Below, piece after piece: positions 1,040 to 31,805 of a stretch of DNA of 32,000 nucleotides; position 1 is the stretch's first letter, and each line of letters begins with the position of its first letter. Below the pieces are notes generated by a model. It saw nothing but the letters and a program-made list of their open reading frames with translations. It did not search any database and was not told the origin of the DNA. Both the position numbers and the translations under genes were made by a program. The stretch is from Nonlabens ponticola (lineage in GTDB: Bacteria > Bacteroidota > Bacteroidia > Flavobacteriales > Flavobacteriaceae), in NCBI RefSeq assembly GCF_003966335.1, contig NZ_CP034549.1, positions 420,001-452,000 on the forward strand, in the 5' to 3' direction.

Positions 1040-1057
1040 GCTTTCGCGAAAGCGTAA
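1040..1057. repeat. palindromic element copy A (GCTTTCGCGAAAGC + GTAA)
   Basis: Perfect 14-bp palindrome at 1040-1053. The right arm extends to GCGTAA and the left arm is degenerate. Intergenic, 26 bp upstream of the aldo/keto reductase ATG. Confidence 0.95.
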
Positions 1058-1082
1058 CTACCTTTATTCTCAAACGCATATT

Positions 1083-2180
1083 ATGAGCATTGAGAAGTAT
1101 TACACGCTGGGAAAAACAGGCCTTAAAGTCAGTAGGCTGGCGTTGGGAACGATGACCTTTGGTAAAGAATGGGGTTGGGGAAATGAGAAAGAGGCGGCGC
1201 AGCAAATATTTGATTACTACCTAGATCACGGCGGCAATTTTGTGGACACTGCAGATATGTATACCGGCGGTACCAGCGAAGAATTTATTGGTGATTTCAT
1301 GCAATCGCGCAACAATCGCGAGGATATTGTACTTGCTAGTAAATTTACCTTCAATACCTCATCGAGCAATGCCATAAATAGTGGTGGTAATTCCCGCAAA
1401 AACATACGTCGGACGCTAGAAGAATCGCTCAAGCGACTGAAGACAGATTATATCGACCTATATATATTACATTGTTGGGACAAATTGACGCCTGTTGAAG
1501 AAGTGATGCGCACACTCAACGACCTAGTTAGCGAGGGCAAGATCCTGCACGTAGGTTTGTCGAACGTTCCTGCCTGGTATGCATCACGAGCGCAAATGCT
1601 TGCTGAAGCTAATGGCTATGAACCCATAAGCGCACTGCAACTAGAGTATTCGCTTATACAACGCACTATCGAGCATGAATATATCGATCTAGGACAATAC
1701 ACCAATGCTGGTATCATGGCGTGGTCGCCGCTAGGTGGTGGCTTGTTGTCTGGCAAATACAAGCCTGGCATTGACGATCAAGAAGATGTTGAAGGTCGCC
1801 TGAAACACATTACTGATAATGGCGGTGAGGTAAGCTCCAAAGACAACAAGCGCAACTGGAATATTGTGAAAACGCTACAGGAAGTAAGCGAGGAAATCAA
1901 TCAACCCATGGCAAGCGTGGCCTTGAACTGGACGGCTAACCAGCCCAATGTTGCCAGTGTACTCGTGGGCGCGACCAAAATGAAACAAATTGAGGAAAAC
2001 ATGAAAGCCCTGAATTTTGAAATACCAGCAGACCTGATGCAAAAACTCAACGAGGCCAGCGCACCACAAGCTGCCAATCCATATACCTTTTTCCAACCAA
2101 AAATGCAGGAACGCATCTATCCAGATAATAAAGTGGGTCATAAACCGCCACATTACTGGAAAAGTGTAGATATTGGCTAA
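1083..2180 (+). CDS. aldo/keto reductase family oxidoreductase
   Basis: MSIEKYYTLGKTGLKVSRLALGTMTFG..., DTADMYTGGTSEEFIG, YIDLYILHCWD and GKILHVGLSNVPAW are typical AKR blocks. I start at ATG 1083. The track start at 1026 only adds a translation of the palindrome (LSRKRN). Confidence 0.9.
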   Translation: MSIEKYYTLGKTGLKVSRLALGTMTFGKEWGWGNEKEAAQQIFDYYLDHGGNFVDTADMYTGGTSEEFIGDFMQSRNNREDIVLASKFTFNTSSSNAINSGGNSRKNIRRTLEESLKRLKTDYIDLYILHCWDKLTPVEEVMRTLNDLVSEGKILHVGLSNVPAWYASRAQMLAEANGYEPISALQLEYSLIQRTIEHEYIDLGQYTNAGIMAWSPLGGGLLSGKYKPGIDDQEDVEGRLKHITDNGGEVSSKDNKRNWNIVKTLQEVSEEINQPMASVALNWTANQPNVASVLVGATKMKQIEENMKALNFEIPADLMQKLNEASAPQAANPYTFFQPKMQERIYPDNKVGHKPPHYWKSVDIG

Positions 2181-2194
2181 ATAAATTACAAAAA

Positions 2195-2222
2195 ATACCT
2201 GCTACATAATGGCAGCAGGTAT
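2195..2222. terminator. bidirectional intrinsic terminator
   Basis: 9-bp stem ATACCTGCT (2195-2203) / AGCAGGTAT (2214-2222). A-run on the left and T-rich run on the right. Lies between convergent transcription units. Confidence 0.7.
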
Positions 2223-2228
2223 TTTCTT

Positions 2229-2327
2229 TTAATTTTTGCGATTACGATACCTTAAATAAATTACTGCAGCGACTACAAGCGATGAAATACTTATCGCCAC
2301 TACTAGTAACCAAAAAACCACGTACAT
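2229..2327 (-). CDS. candidate 32-aa single-pass membrane peptide
   Basis: My translation is MYVVFWLLVVAISISSLVVAAVIYLRYRNRKN*, a hydrophobic helix followed by a basic tail. It starts 10 nt after the desaturase stop and ends just before the terminator at 2195-2222. Too short for the ORF track. Confidence 0.3.
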   Translation of the reverse strand: MYVVFWLLVVAISISSLVVAAVIYLRYRNRKN

Positions 2328-2336
2328 AATCTCAAC

Positions 2337-3341
2337 TTATTTACCTACCAACGCTGGCTGTACCCACTTAAAAATATAGCTTTCATCTGGTATCACCATG
2401 CGCTGTGCGACACGCTCCATGCGTGCTGGTAACTTCATGAGGTAGTCACGAGCCTTTTCTGCCTCATCGCTTAGATCATTTAGACTAGGGATATCCCAAA
2501 CTTTGATGAGCTCTTTCAATATATCTATATAATCTTGAGCAGTGTAAACACCTATGCGCTGTGCGCTATTAGAGAAATCTTCAAAAGCTGCACCAATGGT
2601 TTGCCCTGACTCTCTCAAAAAGTGTGCTGGCATGACAATCTTGTGCACCATCATCTCCTTAAATGCAATCATCATATTGCTAGGATCTACCTTAAAGATT
2701 TCATCTACAAAAGCACTATAAGCCTTATGGTGGCGCATCTCATCACCGCTTATGATACGACACATTTTTGATAGTGCTGTATTGCCGTAAGTTCGAGCCA
2801 TTTTGGCCACCCGATTATGAGAAATATAGGTTGCTAGTTCCTGGAAGCTGGTATAAACAAAGTTCTTATAAGGATCACGATCGGTTCCTATATCAAAGCC
2901 ATCTGCGATTAAATGCTGTGTGGTCACCTCAACCTCGCGCATATTTACACGACCTGATAGATATAGATATTTGTTGAGGACATCGCCGTGACGATTTTCC
3001 TCACTAGTCCACTGGCGAACCCATTTTGACCAGACATTGCCTTTACCTTCTACTTGATTGACGCCTTCTACATCCATGAGCCATGACTCATAGGTAGGTA
3101 GCGCCTCTTCAGTAATGGTGTCGCCTACTAGGGCAACCCATAGATCATAAGGCAATTCTTTTGCTAGCTCACGTATTTCCTTGAGCTTGTCAAAAAAACC
3201 ATCAACTGTAGAATCTGGTAAGAAGTCTGACGGCTGCCAGATTTTCTCGATAGGAATCAAGAACTGATCCATGAAGGACTCTACCTTGGATTCAAGGCTT
3301 TGCATCACTTCAATGCGTATATTCTTTAGGGGTTTTATCAT
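2337..3341 (-). CDS. soluble acyl-ACP desaturase (di-iron, FA_desaturase_2 type)
   Basis: The two di-iron motifs EENRHG and DEMRHH lie about 90 residues apart, with WVRQWTSEENRHGDVLNKYLYLSGR. I start at ATG 3341 (MIKPLKNIRIEV...). The longer track ORF reads through palindrome copy B. Confidence 0.85.
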   Translation of the reverse strand: MIKPLKNIRIEVMQSLESKVESFMDQFLIPIEKIWQPSDFLPDSTVDGFFDKLKEIRELAKELPYDLWVALVGDTITEEALPTYESWLMDVEGVNQVEGKGNVWSKWVRQWTSEENRHGDVLNKYLYLSGRVNMREVEVTTQHLIADGFDIGTDRDPYKNFVYTSFQELATYISHNRVAKMARTYGNTALSKMCRIISGDEMRHHKAYSAFVDEIFKVDPSNMMIAFKEMMVHKIVMPAHFLRESGQTIGAAFEDFSNSAQRIGVYTAQDYIDILKELIKVWDIPSLNDLSDEAEKARDYLMKLPARMERVAQRMVIPDESYIFKWVQPALVGK

Positions 3342-3382: not shown

Positions 3383-3402
3383 TACGCTTTCGCGAAAGCG
3401 TA
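3383..3402. repeat. palindromic element copy B (TACGCTTTCGCGAAAGCGTA)
   Basis: 20-bp perfect palindrome, intercistronic between the plsC stop (3428) and the desaturase start (3341). Confidence 0.95.
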
Positions 3403-3427
3403 ATACTAAAGAACCGCATGGCATATT

Positions 3428-4171
3428 TTAACTTGCCGTACTGGTGACACTACTATGTACCACGTTTTGTGCCGCTTCTATAACCTCGAGCTCATCTTTT
3501 CCCGCGATGGGCATGGGCTCATGAACAGTAAGGCTAATGTGGTTGCCCATTCCAAAAGGAAACTTGCCATAACGATCCACTTTCCAGCTGTTGTTTACAG
3601 TCACCGGAACGACCACGGCGTTTGGTACATACTTGAAAATAGTCTGTAAACCACGACGTTGAAATGGTTTAGGGACGCCTGTACGGCTGCGCGTGCCCTC
3701 GGCAAAAATCACGATGCTGCGCGTTTTTTCGTGCGCATTCTTAGCAAAAGTCGTCAATGCATTCACCGCTTGTACCTTGTCCTTGCGGTCTATGGCACAG
3801 TTCTCACCTATACGCAGGTTGAGTGAGATGCTGGGAATATTTTTGGCGAGTTCGATCTTGCTCACAAACTTGGGGTAGTGCTTTCGTAAATACCAAATAA
3901 GCGGTGGTATGTCAAACATACTTTGGTGATTGCTGACAAATATGTAGGATTTACCGACTGGTAATTCTTCCGTGTACTTGATGCTAAAGGTGTTTCCCAA
4001 TGGTAACATACTGCCCATCAAGCACAAATTAAGCACTGCGACACTTTTTTGATGCAGGTCATGACCGCCTATCCAGTTGCACAATAACTGTATGGGATGA
4101 AATATCAACAGTGCCAGAAAAAACAGGATCAAATGAATCACCGACAATGGGTAGGAAAGAATTTTTGCCAT
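3428..4171 (-). CDS. plsC: 1-acyl-sn-glycerol-3-phosphate acyltransferase (LPLAT/PlsC family)
   Basis: HX4D motif NHQSMFD and the FAEGTRSRTG block, with an N-terminal membrane helix. Confidence 0.85.
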   Translation of the reverse strand: MAKILSYPLSVIHLILFFLALLIFHPIQLLCNWIGGHDLHQKSVAVLNLCLMGSMLPLGNTFSIKYTEELPVGKSYIFVSNHQSMFDIPPLIWYLRKHYPKFVSKIELAKNIPSISLNLRIGENCAIDRKDKVQAVNALTTFAKNAHEKTRSIVIFAEGTRSRTGVPKPFQRRGLQTIFKYVPNAVVVPVTVNNSWKVDRYGKFPFGMGNHISLTVHEPMPIAGKDELEVIEAAQNVVHSSVTSTAS

Positions 4172-4183: not shown

Positions 4184-4225
4184 ATTTCTTATCGCACGAG
4201 ACCCTTATTTATGGATCGCAATCGA

Positions 4226-4237
4226 TATGCATGCATA
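4226..4237. promoter_or_regulatory. 12-bp perfect palindrome TATGCATGCATA (candidate operator)
   Basis: Read directly. Lies 55-66 nt upstream of the plsC start and 5 nt from the microsatellite. Confidence 0.25.
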
Positions 4238-4242
4238 GTAAA

Positions 4243-4323
4243 TTGGTGAGTTGGTGAGTTGGTGAGTTGGTGAGTTGGTGAGTTGGTGAGTTGGTGAGTT
4301 GGTGAGTTGGTGAGTTGGTGAGT
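4243..4323. repeat. 8-bp microsatellite (TTGGTGAG) x10
   Basis: Ten perfect head-to-tail units at 4243-4322 plus one extra base. Intergenic, 72 nt upstream of the plsC ATG. Confidence 0.97.
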
Positions 4324-4503
4324 AATTTCTATCTTACGATACAAAAGCCAAACTACTATATCATTTTTTAAGTACCTAATTGCCTGCTACAGCGTACATC
4401 TTACTTTATAGTCTCGATGATGACTGCGCATTGTGTTTTCAAAGAAGATTTAAATGAAAACAGAGGCCTAATTAACTCTGCACCAAATGCGTGCAAATAA
4501 AAA

Positions 4504-6468: not shown

Positions 6469-6514
6469 TTACGCTACTTCGACTCCGCTCAGTACAACTT
6501 TCGCGAAAGCGTAA
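6469..6514. repeat. split 46-bp variant of the palindromic element (copy C)
   Basis: TTACGC + 24-nt insert TACTTCGACTCCGCTCAGTACAAC + TTTCGCGAAAGCGTAA. Near-identical to 14935-14980. Lies 32 nt upstream of the greA ATG. Confidence 0.9.
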
Positions 6515-7141: not shown

Positions 7142-9355
7142 CTAGAAGTTAAGCGTCAATCCAGCAAGAAAATTGATTCCAGCCTGCGGATAAAACCCTG
7201 CACCTTCTACTGTGTTGACTATTCCTGGATTGCTGAAATCGTCATCAAATGAAAAGTAGTAACCGTTTGAGACATACTGCTCATCAAAGATGTTGTTGAC
7301 CAGTCCAGTGATCACAATGCTATCAAAGATCTTTTTAGGCTTGATGGTGTAGATCAGATTCAGGTCATTCACAAAATAACTGTCCAGTTTTGATAATCGA
7401 GCCTCTGTATTGCTCATGAACTGCTCACTGACAAACTTGCTCAAGAAAGAGATTTGTAATTGCTTGACGGGTTCAAAAACGATGGCGTTTGCCGCCACAA
7501 CTTCTGGTGAATAGGCAATATCTGTAGAGCCTAGATTTTGCAACTCGCCGTCAAATGATCTGATGGTTTCATTATTTCTATTGCGACTTACTGCGACATT
7601 GGGCTGTAGCGTCAACTGTGGTGTTACAGGAATAATCGCTTCCAACTCCACACCTAATCTGTAACTATCACCGCTATTCTCTCGCACCGGTGCGCCTACA
7701 TCATTTATGGCACCTGTAAGGACTAACTGCTCATTGTACAACATTAAGTACCCATTTGCATTAAGGCTAAAGTTGCCAGATTTATGACGCCAGCCTAGTT
7801 CAAAGTCATTAAGTTTTTCTGGCTGGATGTCAGGATTATTTTCAAAGTCATCTCTTGTGGGCTCTCTATTGGCTCGTGCATAAGAGAAGTATAGATCGTT
7901 CTTGCGATTGAGTTCATAGGTGATTCCAGCCTTGGGATTAAAGAATGTGTAATTCTCGTCCACATTAAAATCAATCAAGTCTGCATTGATTCCAGAGGTC
8001 TCATAGTTCACATTTCTTACCTGTAGATCGCCGTACAATTGTATGCGGTCATTTAATTTATATGTTGCTTTCGCGAAAGCGGAAAAATCATTCTTCTTAC
8101 CGTTACCATCATAGTATCGATCTCTAATATCTAAGTTATTTGCAAATCTGGCCCAGATGACCTCACCAAAATGGTCACCATCATAATGACTGAATGAGGT
8201 ACCAAAAATCAAGTCAATTTCATTATTCCTGTAATTGGCACTGGCATTGATTACATAGTAGTCATTATCCAGCCATCTGCGGCGTATCAAATCTGTTGTA
8301 TTGACAATCTCATCATTGATCTCTAATGGTTCAATGCCATAGGTTTCAAAATCGTCATCTTCTCTAAACTGCTCAAAAAAGCCGCGACCGTATGTGTAGT
8401 TCAAGCCAATATTAGTGGACCAGTTGCGATCAATTTTTTGATTCCAGTGCAATTGATAGTGATCCTGGCGGTAATCATCTACCTCATTGTCATAAAACTG
8501 TGTCTCGCCATTCTCATCAGTAAATTGTCCTGCTGGATTGAACGTGCGATCGTTCTCCAAAGTTTCATTATCGATACCAAACCACGACTGATAAGTAACA
8601 TTGTTACCACCAAAGGTGATCGCCTTGATCAAGGTATTGTCATCCACATAAGCTCCTTGCAGGAAATAGGATTTCAGCTCTGTTCTTGCCCGATCTACAT
8701 AACCATCAGAAGAAATATTTGAAAGACGACCAGCAATCTCAAAGTGGTCATTCATCAAGCCTGTAGAAAACTTGACCGTATGCTTGCGGCTATTAAAACT
8801 ACCAGCAGAATTAGAAATCTCGCCGCTCGCCTCTTCTGAAACTAGGTCTGTGAGCACATTGATACTCGCACCAAAAGCGCCACTACCATTAGTGCTCGTA
8901 CCTACACCACGTTGCAATTGCAAACTTTGAACTGACGATGCAAAATCGCCCAAGTTTACCCAAAACGTACCCAACGACTCTGCATCAGAATAAGGAATAC
9001 CATTGATGGTCACGTTAGTTGATTGTGAGCTGATACCGCGCACGCGCAGTCCCGTATAACCTATACCGTTACCAGCATCAGTCGTCGTGACAACAGATGG
9101 CAGGAAATTGAGCAGCAGCGGTATGTCCTGTCCTAGGTTACGTTTTGCAATCTCTTCTTTTGACAGGTTGCTGTGCGTGATGGGCGAGTTGGCCTCGACA
9201 CGCACGGCCTTTACAAGCACCTCGCCTAGCCTTTCGGTCTTGGTGGTGTCCTGTGGTTGAGTGGTTTGCGCTGATAAGCTCACGGCTCCTAGCAGGAACG
9301 CAGCTTTTACAACGACTGATCTTGACGCGCTTAACGTCTTGAATAAATGGTTCAT
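7142..9355 (-). CDS. TonB-dependent outer-membrane receptor (likely thiamine or thiamine-precursor uptake)
   Basis: Signal peptide ending in SLSAQ, a plug region (GYTGLRVRG, INGIP), a long beta-barrel and a C-terminal ...LTLNF. A TPP riboswitch precedes it on the same strand. Confidence 0.9.
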   Translation of the reverse strand: MNHLFKTLSASRSVVVKAAFLLGAVSLSAQTTQPQDTTKTERLGEVLVKAVRVEANSPITHSNLSKEEIAKRNLGQDIPLLLNFLPSVVTTTDAGNGIGYTGLRVRGISSQSTNVTINGIPYSDAESLGTFWVNLGDFASSVQSLQLQRGVGTSTNGSGAFGASINVLTDLVSEEASGEISNSAGSFNSRKHTVKFSTGLMNDHFEIAGRLSNISSDGYVDRARTELKSYFLQGAYVDDNTLIKAITFGGNNVTYQSWFGIDNETLENDRTFNPAGQFTDENGETQFYDNEVDDYRQDHYQLHWNQKIDRNWSTNIGLNYTYGRGFFEQFREDDDFETYGIEPLEINDEIVNTTDLIRRRWLDNDYYVINASANYRNNEIDLIFGTSFSHYDGDHFGEVIWARFANNLDIRDRYYDGNGKKNDFSAFAKATYKLNDRIQLYGDLQVRNVNYETSGINADLIDFNVDENYTFFNPKAGITYELNRKNDLYFSYARANREPTRDDFENNPDIQPEKLNDFELGWRHKSGNFSLNANGYLMLYNEQLVLTGAINDVGAPVRENSGDSYRLGVELEAIIPVTPQLTLQPNVAVSRNRNNETIRSFDGELQNLGSTDIAYSPEVVAANAIVFEPVKQLQISFLSKFVSEQFMSNTEARLSKLDSYFVNDLNLIYTIKPKKIFDSIVITGLVNNIFDEQYVSNGYYFSFDDDFSNPGIVNTVEGAGFYPQAGINFLAGLTLNF
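8067..8080. repeat. palindromic element copy D (inside CDS)
   Basis: Perfect 14-mer inside the TonB receptor gene, read in frame as A-F-A-K-A (..DFSAFAKATY..). Confidence 0.95.
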
Positions 9356-9600: not shown

Positions 9601-9620
9601 TTACGCTTTCGCGAAAGCGG
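9601..9620. repeat. palindromic element copy E (TTACGCTTTCGCGAAAGCGG)
   Basis: 16-bp perfect palindrome at 9604-9619, intergenic, about 45 bp upstream of the -7 box of the riboswitch transcript. Confidence 0.95.
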
Positions 9621-12769: not shown

Positions 12770-14857
12770 TTAAGCAATAGTCGCACCATTCACAACCGCA
12801 TCATCAGGATTGACAAAAACCAATTTTCCATCAGGATCTTCGGCAAGTAGGATCATTCCTTGCGATTCTACACCCATCAATTTTCTAGGTGCAAGGTTGG
12901 CTAGTACGGTTACTTTTCTGCCTATGAGTTCATCGGCAGTGAAGTGTTTTGCGATGCCGCTCACGATGGTTCTTTTATCAATACCAGTATCGACCGTCAT
13001 GACCATGAGTTTGTTGGATTTCGGTAGCTTTTCTGCGGTTAGGATTTCTGCTACACGCAGGTCCATTTTCATAAAATCGTCATAGTTGGTTTCTTCTTTT
13101 TGAGGCATAAGATTAGGTGTTGTGATTTGGTTGGCGGCTTTAGTAGCTTCTAGTTTTTGCAATTGAGCTTCAATCTGCTCGTCCTCAATTTTTGAGAACA
13201 GCAATTCGGCTTTATTGATTTTGTAGCCGTGGTGTAGTAATTCCTGTTTTTGAGCGATGTCGTTCCACTCGATTTTGACCAGATCTGCACGCAATCTGGC
13301 AGCAGGATTTGATGCTATGTTGAGCATGTCCTGTAACTTGCCTGCGGTGTGTGGCAAGAACGGCTCTGCCAGCACGGCAAGAGCTCCAGCGATTTGTAAA
13401 CCTATAAACATGATGGTTTTCACGCGTTCTGGATCAGTTTTGATGAGCTTCCACGGTTCTTCATCGGCTAGGTATTTGTTTCCTAATCTTGCAAGATTCA
13501 TGAACTCGTTTGCGCTTTCGCGAAAGCGGTATCTCTCCAAACTACTTTCTATACTCGCAGGAAATGCATTGACCGCATCTAGCGTCTCTTGATCTACCTG
13601 AGTGAACTCGCCTGGCTGTGGAACCACGCCGTCGTAATATTTGTGCGTCAATACCAGCGCGCGATTGATGAAATTCCCTAGAATGGCCACCAACTCATTA
13701 TTATTGCGCGCCTGAAAGTCTTTCCAGGTAAAATTATTATCCTTGGTTTCTGGTGCGTTTGCGGTAAGCACGTACCTCAACACGTCCTGCTGACCTGGAA
13801 AATCCTGCAGGTATTCATGCAACCAAACAGCCCAGTTGCGCGAGGTAGAAATTTTATCGTCCTCAAGGTTCAAGAACTCGTTTGCAGGAACATTGTCCGG
13901 CAAGATGAAATCGCCGTGCGCCTTGAGCATCGCGGGAAAAATGATACAGTGAAAAACGATATTATCCTTACCTATAAAGTGCAACAGTTTGGTATCCTCA
14001 TTTTTCCAATAATCTTCCCAGTTTTTGCCCTCACGAGAAGCCCATTCCTTAGTTGAGGAAATGTAACCAATAGGCGCATCAAACCAAACGTACAGCACCT
14101 TGCCGTCTGCGCCTTCTACAGGAACGGGAATACCCCAATCCAGATCGCGTGTCACGGCGCGTGGTTTTAAACCATCTGTGATCCAGCCTTTCACCTGGCC
14201 CAGTACGTTGGTTTTCCAGTCGTCGGCATGGCCTTCTACGATCCACTCGTTTAAAAAGTCGCTGTATTGATCCAGTGGTAAAAACCAGTGCTTGGTCTCG
14301 CGCAACTCTGGCACGTTGCCTGTAATGGCACTTTTAGGCTCAATCAAATCTGTTGCATTGTGGCTGGTGCCGCAACGCTCGCATTGATCGCCATAAGATT
14401 CTGGATTGCCGCATTTGGGACAGGTTCCAATCACAAAACGATCTGCGAGAAACTGGTCTGCCTCTTTATCATATAACTGCTCCGTAACTTGCTCTACAAA
14501 TTTGCCGTCCTCATATAATTTAAGGAAAAACTGACTAGCGGTTTCATGATGAACCTGAGCACTGGTACGACTGTAATTGTCGAACGAGATGCCGAATTCC
14601 TCGAAGGAATCGCCTATGATTTTATGGTATCGATCTACGATTTCTTGTGGTGTAACGCCTTCCTTTTTGGCCTTGAGCGTGATAGGCACACCATGTTCAT
14701 CGCTGCCGCAAATAAAGGCAACATCGCTGCCCTTTAATCTCTGGTAACGCGCATAAATATCTGCTGGAACATAGACGCCAGCGAGATGCCCTATGTGAAC
14801 AGGACCATTAGTGTACGGCAGGGCCGCGGTAATCGTATATCGTTGTTGATTGCTCAT
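12770..14857 (-). CDS. metG: methionine--tRNA ligase
   Basis: HIGH motif ([11 protein letters not shown]), zinc knuckles (CPKCGN...CERCG), a KMSKS-region equivalent, and a C-terminal tRNA-binding domain ([12 protein letters not shown]...). I start at ATG 14857 ([15 protein letters not shown]). Confidence 0.95.
13513..13528. repeat. palindromic element copy F (inside metG)
   Basis: 16-bp perfect palindrome CGCTTTCGCGAAAGCG, read as R-F-R-E-S in ..[12 protein letters not shown].. Confidence 0.95.
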
Positions 14858-14934: not shown

Positions 14935-14980
14935 TTACGCTACTTCGACTTCGCTCAGCATAAATTTCGCGAAAGCGTAA
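14935..14980. repeat. split 46-bp variant of the palindromic element (copy G)
   Basis: TTACGC + TACTTCGACTTCGCTCAGCATAAA + TTTCGCGAAAGCGTAA. Same length and architecture as 6469-6514, with 4 differences inside the 24-nt insert. Confidence 0.9.
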
Positions 14981-20760: not shown

Positions 20761-21915
20761 TTAGTTTTTAGTCTTCCTTTTTTGTTTGTCCTTGAGCTCT
20801 TCAATAGTTTCATCGACTTGCTCCATGGCTTCTATCATCTTAGTCTCTTGAGACACTTCTTTGACTAGATAGACATAAACTGGAAAGTGGTCACTGTAGC
20901 CACCAGTAAACGTGCTGCCTAGAAAGCTGCGATACGGATAACCCTTGTAGGACCCAGTTTTATTGGTCATAAAACTAGGATTAAATATGTGGGCTTGATA
21001 GTATTTATAACCATCAACGCCTGATTCATTGAGTAATGGATAGGTCATCATGATCTGGTCAAAAGTATTTCCTGCATCACGGTAAAATAGTGTACTATAA
21101 CCTTGCTTATACATTTGCTCATAAGGATTATAAACCATTTGAGCTTTGACGTCTTCACGATCTTTTTTGGCACCTATATAAACCTTGACACTCTCGTTTG
21201 TAGGATCATCGTTAAGGTCACCCATGACCATGATTTTTGACATGGCATCAACACTATGCAAACTATCTATAATCGTTTTATTGAGCGCTGCTGCAGCATT
21301 ACGCCTGCTACGGCTGCGTTGCTCGCCACCACTGCGCGATGGCCAGTGATTCACAATAAAGCTGATCTTATCGCCATTGAGTAATCCAGTGACAACTATC
21401 GGGCTGCGAGTATAGATACGGTCACCATCAGATGGATCATAAATAAGTAGCTCTTTAGATGCGCTATTCAATACCTTGAACTCGCTTTTTCTATACAGTA
21501 AACCGGTATCAATACCACGCTTGTCAGGTGAGTTGTAATGCTCGATCCCGTAATCATAGTCTATAAGCAATGGATGGTTTACAAGATCCTCAAGCACCTT
21601 GCGGTTCTCTATCTCGCATACACCGACGATAGCTGGTGCACTTTGTGATACATCAGCACCTATTTTGCGTATCACGCGTGCCATATTAGATAATTTCTTC
21701 TGGTAAACTTCTTCTCGTATCCCAGCGTCCATCTCCATAATTGGGCTTGCCTCATCGTTTATGGTCGTATCATCTTCGGTGTCAAAGAGGTTTTCTAAAT
21801 TGTAGAAAGCAACGGTTTGCACTTTGTATTGTTTCGCTTGTTGAGATGATTGTGCTGTTACCGCTTTCGCGAAAGCTAAACAAAACAACATACTGGTAAT
21901 CACACTTTTATACAT
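20761..21915 (-). CDS. secreted endonuclease/exonuclease/phosphatase (EEP) family protein
   Basis: Signal peptide MYKSVITSMLFCLAFAKAVTAQ. EEP blocks VAFYNLENLFD, GVCEIEN, NHWPSR, MGDLNDDP and GGYSDHFPVYVYL. Confidence 0.85.
   Translation of the reverse strand: MYKSVITSMLFCLAFAKAVTAQSSQQAKQYKVQTVAFYNLENLFDTEDDTTINDEASPIMEMDAGIREEVYQKKLSNMARVIRKIGADVSQSAPAIVGVCEIENRKVLEDLVNHPLLIDYDYGIEHYNSPDKRGIDTGLLYRKSEFKVLNSASKELLIYDPSDGDRIYTRSPIVVTGLLNGDKISFIVNHWPSRSGGEQRSRSRRNAAAALNKTIIDSLHSVDAMSKIMVMGDLNDDPTNESVKVYIGAKKDREDVKAQMVYNPYEQMYKQGYSTLFYRDAGNTFDQIMMTYPLLNESGVDGYKYYQAHIFNPSFMTNKTGSYKGYPYRSFLGSTFTGGYSDHFPVYVYLVKEVSQETKMIEAMEQVDETIEELKDKQKRKTKN
21863..21876. repeat. palindromic element copy H (inside CDS)
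   Basis: Perfect 14-mer encoding A-F-A-K-A within the signal peptide (CLAFAKAVTA). Confidence 0.95.
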
Positions 21916-22042: not shown

Positions 22043-24883
22043 ATGAACCAATTCTATTCTAGACTTTTAATCGCCGTTATGTTGCTATTTACCTCGCTAG
22101 GTACGGCACAAGAGCTATTAAAAGGTCGCGTCATTGACGAGACGACCGAAGAGCCTATTCCAGGCGTTGTTGTTACCATCAAAGACAGTCAGCTTAAAGT
22201 AACAACCGATGCACAAGGTTATTTTGTTTTTACAAGAGATCTACAACTAGGCGATCAAATCCTTGTTATTGAGGCAAATGAATACATTACACGCTCCATA
22301 CCAGTCGTTTTGGTGGAAGGTGAGACGGTAAATCTAGATCCTCTTTATCTACAGGTAGACACCATACAACAGGAACAATCAGTTGGTATCATCTCGTTGA
22401 CTGAAAATGATTTGTCTGAAGAAGATAATGCCTCTAATAATATCTCTGGACTCTTACAAGCGACTAGAGACCAGTTCTTAAGAGCTGCGGCTTTTGATTT
22501 TAGCGCGACTTTCTTCAGACCTCGCGGTTTGAATAGTGAAGATGGAAAAATCTTGATCAACGGTATTGAGATGAACAAGCAATTTTCTGGCCGCCCACAG
22601 TGGTCAAATTGGGGCGGAATCAATGACCTACAGCGCAACCAGACGTTTACCATGGGATTGACGCCAGCAGATAACTCCTTTGGTGGGTACGGTGGTGTAC
22701 AAAGTATTGACATGCGTGCAACACAACAGCGTCAAGGAACAAATATTTCCTACGCATCTGCTAACCGTAGTTATCAGGCGCGCTATATGGCTACTTATAA
22801 ATCAGGATTATTAAGTAGTGGCTGGGCTTATGCCATCGCTGCTTCAAGAAGATCGGGTGATGAAGGATTTGTAGAAGGAACTTTATATGATGCCAATTCT
22901 CTAAGTCTTAACGTAGAGAAAAAGATTAATGAGGACCACTTTATCAACTTTACAGGTGTCTATGCTGCTAATAGACGCGGTCGCCGTACGGCAATCACTG
23001 ATGAAATTAGAGACCTTAAAGGTATTGACTACAACCCATTTTGGGGTCTTCAAGAAGGTGCTGAGCGTAACTCGAGAATACGTGAAATTGATGAGCCGTT
23101 CTTTATCTTGAGCCACAATTGGAATGTAAACCCTAAGATCAAATGGAATACTAATGTTTCTTACCAATTTGGTAAAATAGGTAACACTCGTATCGATAAT
23201 GGTGGTACAAGACTTGTGAATGTTGATGGTCAAAACACCTTCTTAGGTGGTGCTCGCAACCCTAACCCAGATTATTACCAGAACTTGCCTAGTTTCTTCT
23301 TGAGAAACGGACAGGATTTGACAGACTTAGGTCGTGCTTACCGCGCTGAGCAGGACTTTATTCAAGATGGTCAACTTAACTGGAATGATATCTATGAAGC
23401 AAACCGCATCTTGAGAGAAAGCGGTGGCAATTCCATCTACATCATCCAGGAAGATCGTATTGATGACAATCAGTTTCAAGCAAGCAGCATCATTACTGCA
23501 GACCTTGCAGATAATATCCTATTTAATGGTGGCGTTTCCTACCGCAAGCTAGAAAGTGAGAACTATGCACTGGCACAGGACTTATTGGGCGGTACTGGTT
23601 ATCTAGATGTTGATTTCTTTGCTGAGGAAACAACACAAATCACCCAAGATCAAGCAGCACAGTCAGACATTAGAAATCCTAATCGTATAGTTACAGAAGG
23701 TGATCGCTACAAATACAACTATGTGATTGATGCTAATGTTGCGAGCGCGTTTGCACAAGCACAATTCAAGACCAATAAAGTAGATTTTTATGTAGCGGGT
23801 AATGTTTCTCAAACTGACTATCAACGTGAAGGTTTATATGAGAACGGTAACTTCCCTGGTGAGCAATCATTTGGAAAAAGTGAGAAGGTCGACTTTACCA
23901 ACTTTGGTGTAAAAGGTGGTGCTACTTATAAAATTAACGGCCTTAATTTCCTAGACCTCAATGCTGCCTACCTAACTAGAGCGCCATACATTAGAAACAC
24001 TTTTGTTAACGCACGTCAAAATAATTTGATTGTTGATGATATTGAATCAGAGCGTAGCTACAGTCTTGACGCAAGTTATATTTATCGATCACCTATCGTG
24101 AAGGCCAGACTTACAGGTTATGCCATTCAATTTAAGGACGGTAACGATTTAGGCTTCTATTTTACGGAAGATCTTACAGGTTTGCCTGCTGACGACGGCG
24201 CGGCTTTTGTTCAAGAAGTAATGACCGATGTTGATAGAAGAAATATGGGAGTTGAATTAGGTGTTGAAGTACAAGTAACCCCAACTATCAAATTGAAAGG
24301 TGCTGCAGCGGTAGGTCAGAATGTTTACACAAACAATCCTAATCTATACTTGACTAGTGATGATTTCCCAGGTCAATTGACATTTGGCGATGGTAAGGCA
24401 CAACTTAAGAACCTACACGTTGCCGGAGGACCTGAGACCGCGATGCAATTAGGTTTTGAGTATCGTGATCCTGATTACTGGAACATTGGTGTAACTGCAA
24501 ACTATTTTGCTAACGGCTACTCAGATATTAGTAACTTAAGACGTACCGCAAACTTTTCTCAAGACAGTGATGGTATTGAATTTGCAGGGTTTGATGAGGA
24601 CATTGCAAGAGAGTTGTTGAGACAAGAACAATTTGACGACTATATGCTTGTCAATGTAATTGGTGGTAAATCATGGAGGATTGACAATAAGTTTGTAGGT
24701 TTCTTTGCCACCATCAACAATGTATTTGATCAAGAGTATAAAACGGGTGGTTTTGAACAATCTCGTAATTCTAACTTTAGATCAGTACAAGAAGACCAGA
24801 ATAACCCAACAGAAGTGTTTGCACCAAGATATTTCTTCGGTAACGGCACAACCTATTACCTAAATGTGTATCTAAGATTTTAA
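22043..24883 (+). CDS. TonB-dependent receptor with an N-terminal carboxypeptidase-regulatory-like domain
   Basis: Signal peptide ...SLGTAQ. LLKGRVIDETTEEPIPGVVVTIKDS (CarbopepD_reg-like), a plug (ILINGIEMN), a roughly 700-aa barrel and a terminal ...NVYLRF. Confidence 0.88.
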   Translation: MNQFYSRLLIAVMLLFTSLGTAQELLKGRVIDETTEEPIPGVVVTIKDSQLKVTTDAQGYFVFTRDLQLGDQILVIEANEYITRSIPVVLVEGETVNLDPLYLQVDTIQQEQSVGIISLTENDLSEEDNASNNISGLLQATRDQFLRAAAFDFSATFFRPRGLNSEDGKILINGIEMNKQFSGRPQWSNWGGINDLQRNQTFTMGLTPADNSFGGYGGVQSIDMRATQQRQGTNISYASANRSYQARYMATYKSGLLSSGWAYAIAASRRSGDEGFVEGTLYDANSLSLNVEKKINEDHFINFTGVYAANRRGRRTAITDEIRDLKGIDYNPFWGLQEGAERNSRIREIDEPFFILSHNWNVNPKIKWNTNVSYQFGKIGNTRIDNGGTRLVNVDGQNTFLGGARNPNPDYYQNLPSFFLRNGQDLTDLGRAYRAEQDFIQDGQLNWNDIYEANRILRESGGNSIYIIQEDRIDDNQFQASSIITADLADNILFNGGVSYRKLESENYALAQDLLGGTGYLDVDFFAEETTQITQDQAAQSDIRNPNRIVTEGDRYKYNYVIDANVASAFAQAQFKTNKVDFYVAGNVSQTDYQREGLYENGNFPGEQSFGKSEKVDFTNFGVKGGATYKINGLNFLDLNAAYLTRAPYIRNTFVNARQNNLIVDDIESERSYSLDASYIYRSPIVKARLTGYAIQFKDGNDLGFYFTEDLTGLPADDGAAFVQEVMTDVDRRNMGVELGVEVQVTPTIKLKGAAAVGQNVYTNNPNLYLTSDDFPGQLTFGDGKAQLKNLHVAGGPETAMQLGFEYRDPDYWNIGVTANYFANGYSDISNLRRTANFSQDSDGIEFAGFDEDIARELLRQEQFDDYMLVNVIGGKSWRIDNKFVGFFATINNVFDQEYKTGGFEQSRNSNFRSVQEDQNNPTEVFAPRYFFGNGTTYYLNVYLRF

Positions 24884-24912
24884 AAGCAATGATCAATTTA
24901 AATAACAATAGA

Positions 24913-26400
24913 ATGAAAAATTTCAGCAAACTGTTTGCACTGCTAGCAATAGTTTCATTGACCTTTTCTTGTGTAGAGGATGATGACTTTGGTGTGCCAG
25001 ACACAGCTCCTGTAGCCGTTGAGCTTGATGGACCAGTAGTAACTATACAAGCTTTGAAAAGTGCTCATGAGCAATTAGTGCTTGATAGAGCAGACGATGC
25101 AGGTCTTGATCCTGATAGTCGTTTTGACGTTGAGGCAATACAGGCGATACGTGAGAATACAGTACTTGAATTTGGTGATACTGACCAGTATGTAGAAGGT
25201 TATGTGATCTCAAGCGATGAAGGTGGTAACTTTTTTGAAGAATTATACGTGCAAAACAGACCGGACATGGCTACAGCTGGTATGATCGTATCGATAGATG
25301 TGAATCCATTGTTTACTAAGTATGATCTAGGTCGTCAAATCTTTGTTGATCTTGAGAACTTAGCATTTGGTTTAGAGAATGGTGTTTATACCCTAGGTGT
25401 AAAAGAAGGCGATCAAGTAGAAAAGATTCCAGCATCAGAGCAAGACAATACTATCATTAGAAGTCCTAATGTTGGGCGTCTAATTCCTACGGTTGTTAGT
25501 TTAGGTGACTTTGACGAGAGTCTAGTAGGTACTTTGGTCCAAGTTCAAGACGTGCAATTCAGCCGTCCAGATGTTGTGCGCGATCAAGGCCCTAAGACCT
25601 ACGCAGGTGAAGACACTGACGAGTTTGACGGTGAGCGTCAATTGATAAGCTGTGCCAACGGTGCATCTGCTGTTTTTAGCACCAGTACCTTTGCAGACTT
25701 TAAATCACTGGACCTTCCAACAGGTCGTGGTGATGTAACTGCTGTATTGACAAAGAACTTCTTTGGTGACACGTTTAATTTATCCATCAACTCTCCAGAA
25801 GATGTTGATCTGAGCAATCAAGATCGTTGTGATCCAGACTTCTTAGTATGTAACAACTCAGATGCTGGTACAGGTGATCAAACTATTTTTGAGCAAAATT
25901 TTGAAACCATATTTGCTGAAGCTCAGCTTGATGATCAAGGATGGACTAACGTAAATGTTTCAGGTGGTGATGAGCGTTATGAAGATGGTAACTTTAGCGG
26001 TAATCGTTACATTCAAGTAAACGCATTTGGTCAAGACGATGATCCAATGATCGCATGGTTAGTTACTCCAGAAATTGATCTAGATGATACAAGCGATGAA
26101 GCATTTAGCTTCTCAATTCAAGCAAACTTTGACCAAGGTGGTTTACTCGAGGTATTCATTACTAATGAATATACTGGTGATCCAACAACAACAAACTGGT
26201 CACAACTTGAGGCTAACATTCCTGAAGGTCCAACCGGCGGATTTGCTTCTGGATTTACAGATGTAGATGCAATTGATATTTCTTGTGTAGAAGGTGAAGA
26301 AGTAAATATCGCATTTAAATACACAGCTTCAGATCCAGCTGGAACAACTACTAGATATCACATTGACAACCTACTGGTAACCGGTAATGATGACGACTAG
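24913..26400 (+). CDS. surface lipoprotein partner of the receptor (DUF5689 / choice-of-anchor-J-like, from memory)
   Basis: Lipobox MKNFSKLFALLAIVSLTFSC followed by an acidic linker. The central segment (YVEGYVISSDEGGNFFEELYVQN...) resembles the OB-like module of extracellular nucleases. The C-terminal domain (FEQNFE..GWTNVNVSGG...) resembles choice-of-anchor J. Lies 29 nt after the receptor stop. Confidence 0.6.
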   Translation: MKNFSKLFALLAIVSLTFSCVEDDDFGVPDTAPVAVELDGPVVTIQALKSAHEQLVLDRADDAGLDPDSRFDVEAIQAIRENTVLEFGDTDQYVEGYVISSDEGGNFFEELYVQNRPDMATAGMIVSIDVNPLFTKYDLGRQIFVDLENLAFGLENGVYTLGVKEGDQVEKIPASEQDNTIIRSPNVGRLIPTVVSLGDFDESLVGTLVQVQDVQFSRPDVVRDQGPKTYAGEDTDEFDGERQLISCANGASAVFSTSTFADFKSLDLPTGRGDVTAVLTKNFFGDTFNLSINSPEDVDLSNQDRCDPDFLVCNNSDAGTGDQTIFEQNFETIFAEAQLDDQGWTNVNVSGGDERYEDGNFSGNRYIQVNAFGQDDDPMIAWLVTPEIDLDDTSDEAFSFSIQANFDQGGLLEVFITNEYTGDPTTTNWSQLEANIPEGPTGGFASGFTDVDAIDISCVEGEEVNIAFKYTASDPAGTTTRYHIDNLLVTGNDDD

Positions 26401-26415: not shown

Positions 26416-26429
26416 GCTTTCGCGAAAGC
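26416..26429. repeat. palindromic element copy I
   Basis: Perfect 14-mer 16 nt after the lipoprotein stop and ahead of the terminator. Confidence 0.95.
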
Positions 26430-28478: not shown

Positions 28479-28492
28479 ATACCGATCGGTAT
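28479..28492. promoter_or_regulatory. operator copy 2: ATACCGATCGGTAT
   Basis: 14-bp perfect palindrome identical to the core of 29108-29129. Lies 7 nt upstream of the hydrolase ATG (28472), in the 39-nt gap after the tetR stop. Confidence 0.6.
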
Positions 28493-28511: not shown

Positions 28512-29102
28512 TTATGTAAGTATGTTATTATTTAATTGCTTGAGACTTGCAACACAATGCTGCATAGCATCATTAGTTCCTTCTAGTTTACTCAACATGA
28601 TCGCACCTTCTAGTGTGGCAATAAAAACATAACACATCTGTTCGATATTTGTTTCTTGTTTAATCTGGCCATGATTCTTTCCATTATGCATGATTTTTAT
28701 GATGGAATCCTTAAGCTTTTGCAGCATCAATCTAGTCTTATCACGCATGATAGAGTCTTTATCATCGACTTCAACAGCACTGTTGAGTAGTGGGCAACCG
28801 CCAGCATACGGCGGCTCAATGAGATAGTTTTCGAAGAATTTGAAAACCACATCCATCTTCTCTTGATAGCTTTTGGCTTCCTTGATTTGGGTTCCCAAGA
28901 TGTTAAACATAGTAGTCGCTAGACGCTTGAGAGCCGCTCTTTCAAGATGTTCTTTATTCTTGAAATGCTTGTAGATAGCACCCTTTGTCAAGCCAGTGGC
29001 CTTAGTAATATCCCGCAATGAGGTTGATTTATAACCTTGCGTGTTGAAGAGATCAGCACTAGTTTTTATAATTAGCTCTCTTGTATGTTCCGGATTTCTC
29101 AC
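28512..29102 (-). CDS. TetR/AcrR-family transcriptional regulator
   Basis: N-terminal HTH: ELIIKTSADLFNTQGYKSTSLRDITKATGLTKGAIYKHFKNKEHL. GTG start. Confidence 0.9.
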   Translation of the reverse strand: MRNPEHTRELIIKTSADLFNTQGYKSTSLRDITKATGLTKGAIYKHFKNKEHLERAALKRLATTMFNILGTQIKEAKSYQEKMDVVFKFFENYLIEPPYAGGCPLLNSAVEVDDKDSIMRDKTRLMLQKLKDSIIKIMHNGKNHGQIKQETNIEQMCYVFIATLEGAIMLSKLEGTNDAMQHCVASLKQLNNNILT

Positions 29103-29106: not shown

Positions 29107-29114
29107 CAAAGATA
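29107..29114 (-). promoter_or_regulatory. -7 box TATCTTTG, 4 nt before the tetR GTG, embedded in the operator
   Basis: The minus strand reads TATCTTTG-ACAC-GTG. The mirror half on the + strand reads TATCTTTA (29123-29130), facing the divergent hydrolase. Confidence 0.45.
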
Positions 29115-29129
29115 CCGATCGGTATCTTT
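29108..29129. promoter_or_regulatory. operator copy 1: 22-bp perfect palindrome AAAGATACCGATCGGTATCTTT
   Basis: Read directly. Lies between divergent tetR (GTG 29102) and the hydrolase (ATG 29165). Confidence 0.7.
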
Positions 29130-29164: not shown

Positions 29165-29917
29165 ATGCCACACATTAGATTAAAGCAATTAAGTGATCAA
29201 GGCGCCGCAGTTATATTAATACATGGTTTTTTAGGAAACTCGGTACAATGGCAACCTATAGCTCAGGTACTGCAATCCAACTACTCTGTTTATACAATAG
29301 ACTTACCAGGACATGGCTCAAATACAAGCCTCGAGTTTTACACGCTTACTGATCTTGCAAAAGATCTGGTAAGAGATCTTAATGAACGGCATATTGATCT
29401 AGTTCATGTGATAGGTCATAGCATGGGTGGTTATGTGGGTTCCGCTTTCGCGAAAGCGCATCCCGAGAAAATTGCCAGTCTCACCCTACTTAATAGTATC
29501 GCTGGTGCTGATAGCGCGCAACGCTTAACACTACGCAACCGCAGCCTTGAATTTATTGAGCGTTACGGCCATGCTTATACCAGCATGGCAATAGCAAATC
29601 TTTTCACCGATTTGGAAAAAGTAACTCATACTGCAATGATCGAGAACCTAAAGAATGCAGCGGCTGCGATGAATTTAATAGCCGTTAAAAATGCCATCAT
29701 TGCCATGCGTGATCGTGTGGATGCATTGCACATGCTAGACGATAAAGGTCTCAACATAAATTATATCGCTGGTACGCAGGATACAATACTTCCTATTGCA
29801 CAGGTACGAAAAGAAGCAGTTGAACTTAATAAGCCCATCGCAGAGATCGATTCAGGACATATGTCGTTGCTCACTTCACCCGAATTAATCATTGAAAGAT
29901 TACCGTTTATCGAATAG
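29165..29917 (+). CDS. alpha/beta hydrolase
   Basis: VILIHGFLGN, GHSMGG nucleophile elbow, and a late SGHM histidine block. I start at ATG 29165, not the track start at 29081, which overlaps tetR. Confidence 0.85.
   Translation: MPHIRLKQLSDQGAAVILIHGFLGNSVQWQPIAQVLQSNYSVYTIDLPGHGSNTSLEFYTLTDLAKDLVRDLNERHIDLVHVIGHSMGGYVGSAFAKAHPEKIASLTLLNSIAGADSAQRLTLRNRSLEFIERYGHAYTSMAIANLFTDLEKVTHTAMIENLKNAAAAMNLIAVKNAIIAMRDRVDALHMLDDKGLNINYIAGTQDTILPIAQVRKEAVELNKPIAEIDSGHMSLLTSPELIIERLPFIE
29443..29458. repeat. palindromic element copy J (inside CDS)
   Basis: 16-bp perfect palindrome encoding A-F-A-K-A just after the nucleophile elbow (GHSMGGYVGSAFAKAHPE). Confidence 0.95.
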
Positions 29918-30219: not shown

Positions 30220-30221
30220 TT

Positions 30222-31268: not shown

Positions 31269-31272
31269 GATG

Positions 31273-31280
31273 CAAAGCTA
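31273..31280 (-). promoter_or_regulatory. -7 box TAGCTTTG, 4 nt before the thiL ATG
   Basis: The minus strand reads TAGCTTTG-CATC-ATG. Confidence 0.45.
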
Positions 31281-31402
31281 CAATTATGATTCATAAAGCT
31301 GTAAAATTTAGACCCATTATACGACTGGAAAAGCTATAAGAAATGTACATACAAGCATGTGAGAAACTCATGTAAATGCGCCTTAAGCCGCGGTGTGTAT
31401 TG

Positions 31403-31410
31403 TATCTTTG
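31403..31410 (+). promoter_or_regulatory. -7 box TATCTTTG upstream of the suf genes
   Basis: Matches TAnnTTTG, 28 nt before ATG 31439. Confidence 0.35.
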
Positions 31411-31438
31411 CACACATTTATTTAACGATAAAAGCATT

Positions 31439-31768
31439 ATGATAAACGTATCTGAAACAGCAAAAACAAGACTAAGCTCATTAATGAGCGAGGAAGGTTT
31501 TTCCATTGACAAAGACTACGTGCGCGTAGGCGTCAAGAGCGGTGGTTGTAGCGGTTTGTCCTATGATTTGAGTTTTGACAAGAATAGCGTCGAGACCGAC
31601 AAAGTCTTTGAAGCAAATGATGTACGCATCGTGGTGGACAAGCGCAGTTTTCTATACCTAGTAGGCACGACCCTAGAATTTAGCGGTGGTCTCAACGGCA
31701 AGGGATTTGTATTCAATAATCCTAATGCACAAAGAACCTGCGGTTGTGGTGAGAGTTTTTCCTTGTAG
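31439..31768 (+). CDS. sufA: HesB/IscA/SufA-type iron-sulfur cluster insertion protein
   Basis: MINVSETAKTRL..., GVKSGGCSGLSY, and a C-terminal CGCGESF. I start at ATG 31439. Confidence 0.88.
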   Translation: MINVSETAKTRLSSLMSEEGFSIDKDYVRVGVKSGGCSGLSYDLSFDKNSVETDKVFEANDVRIVVDKRSFLYLVGTTLEFSGGLNGKGFVFNNPNAQRTCGCGESFSL

Positions 31769-31783
31769 AGAGGTTTTGTGTGA

Positions 31784-31805
31784 TTACGCTTTCGCGAAAG
31801 CGTAA
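31784..31805. repeat. palindromic element copy K, full 22-bp form TTACGCTTTCGCGAAAGCGTAA
   Basis: 22-bp perfect palindrome, intercistronic between sufA and sufB. Confidence 0.95.

Follow-up and report, generated by a model that had tools for sequence, protein, structure and literature searches.

The 14-nt palindrome GCTTTCGCGAAAGC occurs nine times in perfect form and twice in interrupted form in the 32-kb stretch of Nonlabens ponticola DNA that we analyzed (the window; 32,000 nt). It is a trait of a whole clade, composed of Nonlabens, Dokdonia, Croceiramulus, and related uncultured Flavobacteriaceae, and it is not a mobile element of the repetitive extragenic palindrome (REP), miniature inverted-repeat transposable element (MITE), or CRISPR type. 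Very probably, we are dealing with a nonmobile, genome-wide signal that is selected or driven. Our overall reading, to which we give slightly less than an even chance, is that of a lineage-specific, highly iterated palindrome which serves as a strand-symmetric signal along the whole chromosome and may tag self DNA for uptake or recombination.

Occurrence in the window and in other genomes

Dinucleotide-preserving shuffles of the window contained a mean of 0.13 matches, even with up to two mismatches allowed, and never more than one match per shuffle. Against this background, nine perfect copies exclude chance, as a preliminary description of this DNA had concluded. All nine perfect copies listed there were recovered (Table 1), and the two split variants turned out to carry a 24-nt insert each. 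The right-hand parts of the split copies match the palindrome at 6497 (one mismatch) and 14963 (two mismatches), and the full 22-nt palindrome TTACGCTTTCGCGAAAGCGTAA is present a single time in the window. Seven of the 11 copies are intergenic and four are coding; the latter lie, as had been stated, in the genes for a TonB-dependent receptor, methionyl-tRNA synthetase (MetRS), a nuclease (in the signal peptide), and an alpha/beta hydrolase. The gaps between copies are irregular, range from 1.4 to 6.9 kb, and fall within ordinary genes, which agrees with the earlier view that this is not a CRISPR array, where direct repeats are regular and spacers are short. The gene content is that of a Flavobacteriaceae chromosome, including a SusC-like gene pair, a bacilliredoxin, TonB-dependent receptors, and a protein with a T9SS sorting domain, and the MetRS is 100% identical to that of N. 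ponticola.

A scan of a genome collection with one genome per species returned at least 120 stretches with the motif; genome-wide totals mentioned below are extrapolations. About 85 of the stretches listed came from Dokdonia, Nonlabens, or uncultured Flavobacteriaceae, often with two or three copies in 8 kb and from chromosomal positions that are far apart, and the remaining listed ones were single matches in unrelated taxa. Comparison loci of 22 kb each were fetched through metG, so that their sampling was independent of the motif. Perfect copies numbered six in the locus of N. agnitus, five in N. dokdonensis, four each in N. antarcticus and Croceiramulus getboli, and three in N. xiamenensis, or about one copy per 5 kb, and the Aequorivita aquimaris locus had no copy, even at up to two mismatches. 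The estimate from a zero-truncated Poisson fit to 8-kb blocks was one copy per 6.9 kb; in the window, copies are denser, at one per 3.6 kb. The density is thus about one per 4 to 7 kb in five Nonlabens species and Croceiramulus, and the motif occurs repeatedly in Dokdonia. Neither a background frequency nor confinement to this one region, both of which the preliminary description had considered, was found in the DNA sampled; the motif is clade-wide and present at many chromosomal positions. In 142 kb, the 14-mer was observed 31 times, with fewer than 0.01 copies expected. The counts of nested words in these 142 kb were 53 for TCGCGA, 34 for TTTCGCGAAA, 31 for the 14-mer, 20 for the 16-mer, and 2 for the 18-mer. 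This falloff beyond the 16-mer shows that the unit is the 14- to 16-mer.

The Aequorivita aquimaris locus (22.1 kb around metG) has a hyperabundant word of its own, the nonpalindromic 8-mer TTCCGAAG/CTTCGGAA, which occurs 19 times, with 0.59 expected. The copies, about one per 1.2 kb, are all genic and take both orientations relative to the sense strand, with 14 of the 19 in one orientation on the locus. The Nonlabens and Croceiramulus loci contain no copy or one copy of this 8-mer. In Aquimarina loci, CCGAAG is enriched 4- to 6-fold. The Aequorivita word raises the possibility that signals of this kind, each lineage having a dialect of its own, are a common feature of Flavobacteriaceae.

Conservation at orthologous positions and origin of the copies

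Comparison of sequences indicates that orthologous copies are kept between species whose synonymous sites are nearly saturated. In metG, the five codons that carry the motif are identical in five of six motif-clade species, with a third-position identity to N. ponticola of only 0.41 to 0.60. The exception is N. antarcticus, which has two synonymous changes; the Aequorivita equivalent reads CGT TTC CGC GAA GCG. Six further sites of the window, among them the copies at 8067, 21863, and 29444 and the sites upstream of metG and greA, have perfect counterparts at orthologous sister-species sites, where the flanks are 70 to 84% identical. The position orthologous to 8067 is perfect in N. agnitus, N. 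antarcticus, and N. xiamenensis, and the copy at 21863, which lies in the codons for the signal peptide MYKSVITSMLFCLAFAKAVTAQ of a nuclease-family protein, is perfect in three other Nonlabens species. The site upstream of metG is perfect in both N. agnitus and N. antarcticus; the one upstream of greA is perfect in the former and has one mismatch in the latter. After the iscA-like gene, Dokdonia sp. Asnod2-E02 shares 20 identical nt (TACGCTTTCGCGAAAGCGTA) with N. ponticola at the corresponding position, within a spacer that has otherwise diverged.

In 795 kb, 175 perfect copies were found, along with 16 copies with one mismatch and 17 with two; matches with three mismatches were at about the estimated chance level. 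The copies are maintained at the level of the DNA, by selection or drive. Quasi-palindrome correction was considered and rejected, as none of the 17 two-mismatch copies is a symmetric double variant. Sites can also decay or be disrupted.

About 54% of 153 copies in flavobacterial DNA lie in the interior of open reading frames (ORFs), and all three reading frames are used, giving AFAKA in 48 cases, RFRES in 20, and LSRK in 16, in unrelated proteins. Roughly one-third of the copies, if not more, are intergenic, compared with an intergenic share of 12% in the sequence as a whole, an approximately 3-fold enrichment. The RFRES of MetRS aligns without gaps to RFKDA in the enzyme of P. abyssi (Pyrococcus); across Flavobacteriaceae, MetRS generally has RFRE[A/S], which is the ancestral state. 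Similarly, the AFAKA of the hydrolase (29444) aligns without gaps to AFCER of PDB entry 7dq9. These gap-free alignments indicate that the MetRS and hydrolase copies are substitutions at preadapted sites and not insertions. As had been noted before, the copies have no flanking repeats and the window has no transposase: repeat finding gave no shared flanks and no target-site duplications, and no transposase, including a REP-associated tyrosine transposase (RAYT) or Y1 transposase, is encoded among the window genes. The earlier judgment that these are not classical REP elements also holds, given the coding copies, their origin by substitution, and the mutual avoidance described below. A known RNA family was rejected as a candidate, since Rfam gave no matches in the window.

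Table 1. Copies of the palindrome in the N. ponticola window
Feature	Position	Strand	Context
Perfect copy	1040..1053		About 30 nt 5' of an aldo-keto reductase gene with the likely start MSIEKYY...
Perfect copy	3386..3399		Between the stop (3428) of an acyltransferase gene and the next minus-strand gene, counted from its likely true start
Split copy	6469..6514		5' of greA; TTACGC + 24-nt insert TACTTCGACTCCGCTCAGTACAAC + TTTCGCGAAAGCGTAA
Perfect copy	8067..8080	minus	TonB-dependent receptor gene; encodes AFAKA
Perfect copy	9605..9618		Divergent intergenic region between TonB receptor gene and pirin-like gene
Perfect copy	13514..13527	minus	metG (MetRS); CGC TTT CGC GAA AGC = RFRES
Split copy	14935..14980		5' of metG; TTACGC + 24-nt insert TACTTCGACTTCGCTCAGCATAAA + TTTCGCGAAAGCGTAA
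Perfect copy	21863..21876	minus	Signal-peptide codons (LAFAKAV) of Exo_endo_phos_3/ExeM-NucH-like nuclease gene
Perfect copy	26416..26429		16 nt past the stop of DUF5689 lipoprotein gene, convergent intergenic region
Perfect copy	29444..29457	plus	Alpha/beta hydrolase gene; GHSMGGYVGSAFAKAHPEK; perfect in N. agnitus
Full 22-nt palindrome	31784..31805		14-mer from 31788; 16 to 20 nt past the stop of iscA/erpA-like gene

Flanks, spacing, and hairpin potential

Four features go beyond the preliminary description, namely, the mirror-symmetric flanks, the mutual avoidance of copies, the split copies as insertions, and the mini-hairpin identity of GCGAAAGC. The consensus is TT[A/C]C-GCTTTCGCGAAAGC-G[T/G]AA, in which the 14-mer is usually extended by C...G to a 16-mer, followed outward by a variable position and then by TT and AA. 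Each copy is surrounded by a mirror-symmetric context of about 75 bp in total. Over about 30 nt, the 5' side is poor in C (0.09 to 0.14, versus a background of 0.19) and rich in G and T, and the 3' side mirrors this, being poor in G and rich in A and C. T peaks at positions -4, -7, -10, and -13 and A at the mirrored positions, and the skew fades by 35 to 40 nt. It is present separately in sense-oriented coding copies and in intergenic copies and is independent of gene strand; because it is seen on both sides of sense-oriented coding copies, we rejected the idea that it is a by-product of 5' untranslated regions or codon usage. The two flanks of one copy are not more complementary to each other than flanks of different instances beyond 2 nt. 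The symmetry therefore points to a preference at each of the two half-sites and not to an extended stem, and this result, together with the lack of shared flanks, led us to reject a longer hairpin or a MITE.

Copies avoid one another. The minimum among 95 gaps was 638 bp, with no gap below 500 bp (13.7 expected) and two below 800 bp (21 expected), and none of 5,000 simulations matched this.

The 14-mer can be read as GCTTTC-GC-GAAAGC, so that each strand carries GCGAAAGC. This octamer has been described as an "extraordinarily stable mini-hairpin," with a melting temperature of 76.5°C, resistance to exonuclease, and poor binding by SSB, and it is located at the phage G4 primase site (PMC13037366). 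The half-site alone was rejected as the functional unit, since isolated GCTTTCG/CGAAAGC and isolated GCGAAAGC are near expectation. The 9-bp stem with a CGCG loop that had been proposed for the element holds for the full 22-mer, with -7.3 kcal/mol in standard DNA folding, but not for the 14-mer alone, with -2.1 kcal/mol. Native flanks raise the predicted probability of the core stem modestly (0.70 versus 0.61; P = 2.5e-4). Insulation of a hairpin in single-stranded DNA (ssDNA) as the reason for the flank skew was rejected, as this effect on the stem is small and the flanks are not less structured.

Interrupted copies and associated small elements

Both split copies are 24-nt insertions into a preexisting palindrome, since the orthologous sites are perfect in N. 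agnitus and perfect (metG) or one mismatch away (greA) in N. antarcticus. The insert (6475 to 6498 and 14941 to 14964) is an example of ACTTCGACTNCGCTCAG, a short element with a very wide distribution that continues with TGTGAC, TCTGACA, or TACAAG and is present in metagenome contigs with a GC content of 0.28 to 0.71. In the examples that we inspected, this element often sits in the loops of otherwise unrelated hairpins, and the four copies found in Nonlabens DNA are all within the palindrome or within a degenerate form of it. At the N. agnitus site orthologous to 9605 (14940 to 14985 of its locus), another palindrome, CCTGTCTGCCGACAGGCAGG, has taken the place of the left arm and directly adjoins the right half CGCGAAAGCG, which is retained; CCTGTCTGCCGACAGGCAGG represents a second kind of small palindromic element at motif sites.

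Phages and the central CGCG

Most matches in viral contigs were single and chance-like. Several low-GC viral contigs from IMG/VR had two or three perfect copies in 11 to 14 kb. The three of these that were checked contain caudovirus portal, major head, head protease, and tape-measure genes, with copies partly inside the protease gene and an HNH endonuclease gene, and such contigs probably are temperate phages of the motif-bearing clade. P12024S and P12024L, two Nonlabens phages in culture, lack the palindrome altogether and strongly avoid GGCC (0 versus 32 expected), CCGG (2 versus 32 expected), and CGCG (9 to 10 versus 43 expected; 0.21 of expectation). Avoidance of palindromes by phages is linked to host restriction systems. 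The avoidance of CGCG suggests that the host of these phages restricts CGCG, in which case the host would methylate the center of the motif. This would lend indirect support to a methylation- or restriction-related target, the third option of the preliminary description. Outside the motif, avoidance of TCGCGA or CGCG by the host was examined and rejected: in 142 kb, TCGCGA outside TTTCGCGAAA occurs 19 times (about 22 expected) and CGCG 247 times (258 expected).

DISCUSSION

We searched the literature for the motif sequence and related terms and did not find it described. Structurally, its closest analogue is the highly iterated palindrome HIP1 (GCGATCGC) of cyanobacteria. Like HIP1, the motif is palindromic and hyperabundant, occurs within and between ORFs and nonrandomly along the chromosome, and has a GC-rich core that is a potential methylation site; its conservation at orthologous positions is of the kind that for HIP1 has been read as selection (PMC5861425). 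At the sequence level it behaves as a HIP, being far above expectation both in and between ORFs and conserved between genomes beyond neutral expectation. For HIP1, lineage-specific replacement motifs (alternate HIPs) exist (PMC4390886), and its function, long unknown, is now linked to transformation (10.1101/2024.09.10.611283; 10.64898/2026.06.24.733823). Unlike HIP1, the palindrome is found in Bacteroidota, is 14 to 16 bp long instead of 8 bp, is about 5 to 15 times less dense (one per 4 to 7 kb), has symmetric, strand-skewed flanks of about 30 nt, avoids itself below about 600 bp, and has halves that form the GCGAAAGC mini-hairpin.

The uptake signal sequence (USS) of Pasteurellaceae and the DNA uptake sequence (DUS) of Neisseriaceae offer a second comparison. 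Core USS have weaker extended flanking preferences and many one-mismatch relatives, and USS positions are reportedly shared between related species, as is said to have been found by Bakkali et al. in 2004. As with these sequences, the palindrome is clade specific with apparent dialects, is, by extrapolation, present in hundreds to thousands of copies, is overrepresented throughout the clade in coding and intergenic DNA with enrichment in the latter, keeps shared positions, and arises within genes by substitution in frames that give tolerated peptides; its density is lower. For USS and DUS, the uptake bias and the receptor (ComP) are experimentally established. The palindrome is nevertheless unlike the described members of both the HIP and USS groups with regard to phylum, length, the two overlapping mini-hairpin octamers, the skewed flanks, density, and avoidance. 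The preliminary description had suggested a DUS- or USS-like signal or the site of a dimeric protein, and this holds as far as the class is concerned, in view of the substitution origin, orthologous conservation, even spacing, and clade-wide distribution.

Part of how this signal works is shown by the comparisons above. Copies originate by point substitution at sites where the surrounding sequence permits it, within genes at peptides such as AFAKA, RFRES, and LSRK, and are then held letter-perfect at the same positions over long evolutionary distances and kept apart from each other. The reader of the signal would be symmetric, for example, a dimeric sequence-specific protein on duplex DNA; alternatively, it could be a factor that encounters GCGAAAGC in single-stranded DNA, where either strand offers the identical mini-hairpin. 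The weakest step is that the process served would need a tag every few kilobases on self DNA. The likeliest such process would be the uptake and/or recombination of same-species DNA, as for USS and DUS and as proposed for HIP1. We put forward uptake and/or recombinational processing of self DNA as the function tentatively, as the best of several candidates that may well be wrong. It is favored because the coding frames, orthologous stability, intergenic enrichment, and clade specificity match USS and DUS, because the diminishing returns of a second nearby tag would explain the spacing, and because HIP1 is now tied to transformation. It is also favored because Riemerella columbina, treated as one of the Flavobacteriaceae in the paper cited, is naturally competent and prefers self DNA, with no known uptake sequence (PMC7965970).

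Several observations weigh against this proposal. Known uptake sequences are asymmetric, 9 to 12 nt long, and, at about one per kb, some 4 to 6 times denser, and DUS are often arranged as inverted pairs at close range. Perfect copies of the palindrome outnumber one-mismatch copies about 5 to 10 to 1, a ratio sharper than that reported for USS. No competence-related gene is encoded in the window, and the copies in phage contigs are not obviously predicted by an uptake-driven process unless these contigs are resident prophages. The C-poor and G-poor flanks are explained by none of the readings, the effect on ssDNA folding being small, and the mini-hairpin may be a coincidence, as isolated GCGAAAGC octamers are not enriched.

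A different view, which we find unlikely, is that the copies are loading or binding sites of a chromosome-organizing protein in the style of ParB-parS, Noc and its binding sites (NBS), SlmA, or an SMC loader, so that a dimer binds the 14- to 16-bp palindrome every few kilobases and shapes or partitions the nucleoid. A perfect palindrome with independent half-site flank preferences, even spacing with mutual avoidance, the irrelevance of coding status and gene strand, and strong purifying maintenance of copies would all fit. Both parS and NBS are similarly exact palindromes of 14 to 16 bp that are read by a dimer, are tolerated inside genes, and are conserved across species, and the periodicity of HIP1 has likewise been interpreted as chromosome organization (PMC5861425). 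However, parS and NBS number tens per genome and are regionally restricted, whereas the palindrome is evenly spread at one per 4 to 7 kb over many chromosomal positions, and its extrapolated hundreds to about 1,000 sites per genome would be 10 to 100 times any known set of parS, NBS, SlmA-binding sites, or matS. Moreover, no candidate protein was found, and the presence of copies in temperate-phage-like contigs and their absence from the cultured phages would need separate explanations. Somewhat less probable still is a signal in ssDNA, comparable to Chi or to single-strand initiation (ssi) sites, in which an exposed strand folds into the GCGAAAGC mini-hairpin or the palindromic hairpin, excludes SSB, stops 3' exonucleases, and marks a point for priming or recombinase loading, with the GT-rich, C-poor 5' flank as the preserved tail. 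RecA prefers GT-rich ssDNA, and Chi in Escherichia coli has a similar density, with a site every few kilobases. The presence of GCGAAAGC on both strands of every copy, the G/T-rich, C-poor 30 nt or so on the 5' side of each strand, and the raised hairpin probability with native flanks would be in line with such a role, as would the exonuclease resistance, poor SSB binding, and phage G4 location of the octamer (PMC13037366). Related sites, such as d(GCGAAAGC) at the phage G4 origin and CCGAAGG in RSF1010 ssiA, are single sites at origins of ssDNA replicons, whereas here the same octamer lies on both strands of a genome-wide palindromic array; to our knowledge, no such array of mini-hairpins has been described. 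Against a role in ssDNA, the lack of enrichment of isolated octamers implies that only the palindrome matters, stem-extending positions show weak covariation only, and folding predictions give a modest energy and no reduced structure in the flanks. Furthermore, known Chi sequences are asymmetric words of 5 to 8 nt with skewed orientation, whereas the motif is a perfect palindrome of 14 to 16 nt, and the cultured Nonlabens phages grow without any copy.

Two further explanations have less in their favor. In the early model for HIP1, methylation-linked or biased repair turns near-matches into the palindrome, which would make the sequence a functionless, neutral by-product. The CGCG/TCGCGA center, the very sharp ratio of perfect to one-mismatch copies, and the copies in prophage-like DNA could be accounted for in this way, and the avoidance of CGCG, GGCC, and CCGG by the two cultured phages implies restriction-modification in hosts that themselves avoid neither CGCG nor TCGCGA. 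We consider it improbable, since recognition of 14 to 16 bp plus flanks of about 30 nt would be unprecedented, since neither the mutual avoidance nor the symmetric composition of the flanks would follow from it, and since conservation at orthologous sites is the very argument that was used for selection in HIP1 (PMC5861425). It is very improbable that the motif is a REP- or MITE-type element mobilized by a transposase of the RAYT or IS200/IS605-like type, or that it is an operator for a global transcription factor. TTAC beside a hairpin recalls the target sites of IS608. The roughly 3-fold intergenic enrichment, often near 5' ends of genes, and the other small palindromic elements inserted into or beside copies could be cited for such an origin, and REP elements and the bacterial interspersed mosaic elements (BIMEs) that they form are likewise short, multicopy palindromes enriched between genes. 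But REP and BIME are extragenic, imperfect, clustered, and mobilized, whereas about half of the present copies lie in ORF interiors, in three frames, and the copies are letter-perfect and orthologous across species and genera, with no two closer than 638 bp. Two coding copies are substitutions, and neither flank homology nor target-site duplications nor a transposase was found in the window. A transcription factor regulon would show degenerate, promoter-positioned sites instead of letter-perfect intragenic ones. The substitution origin, orthologous positions, avoidance, and lack of target-site duplications largely refute this last explanation.

It is conceivable, if doubtful, that the palindrome is both a tag for uptake or recognition of duplex DNA and a nuclease-stop and recombinase-loading point in ssDNA, which would merge USS-like and Chi-like roles. 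Either strand, once single stranded, would then present GCGAAAGC after a GT-rich tail. We know of no USS, DUS, Chi, or HIP1-type genomic word in Bacteroidota, and if this merged role, doubtful as it is, were true, marine Flavobacteriaceae would have lineage-specific self-DNA signals, the palindrome and the Aequorivita TTCCGAAG, that are the first in this phylum.

Hyperabundant words such as USS, DUS, Chi, and HIP1 offer a rare view of how cells recognize and process their own DNA, and the palindrome is a concrete candidate for a self-DNA signal in Dokdonia and Nonlabens, which are culturable marine genera. Its length and exactness, skewed flanks, strict spacing, and mini-hairpin identity would constrain the mechanism once a reader protein is known. 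In practical terms, it could serve as a marker that helps to bin metagenomic contigs and to flag foreign DNA, and it might be used to improve genetic tools for these bacteria, as was done with HIP1.

Other features of the window

A separate terminator-like hairpin lies 3' of the copy at 26416. Just 5' of the minus-strand acyltransferase gene (3428 to 4171), about 13 units of (GTGAGTTG)n, 8 nt each, are repeated in tandem (4222 to 4341), and this tract could be slippage prone and phase variable. Directly downstream of metG lies a YoeB/YefM toxin-antitoxin pair (12223 to 12731), which is not present at this position in the other Nonlabens loci examined. Two perfect ATACCGATCGGTAT palindromes (28479 to 28492 and 29112 to 29125) flank a TetR-family gene (28512 to 29102) and face two adjacent alpha/beta hydrolase genes; they probably are the operators of this TetR-family repressor. 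Between 20761 and 27607, a SusC-like TonB-dependent receptor gene (22043 to 24883) is paired with a gene for a DUF5689 "choice-of-anchor J" lipoprotein (24889 to 26400). This pair is flanked by two genes for Exo_endo_phos_3/ExeM-NucH-like secreted nucleases, an arrangement that is kept in four Nonlabens species and looks like a locus for the use of extracellular DNA.

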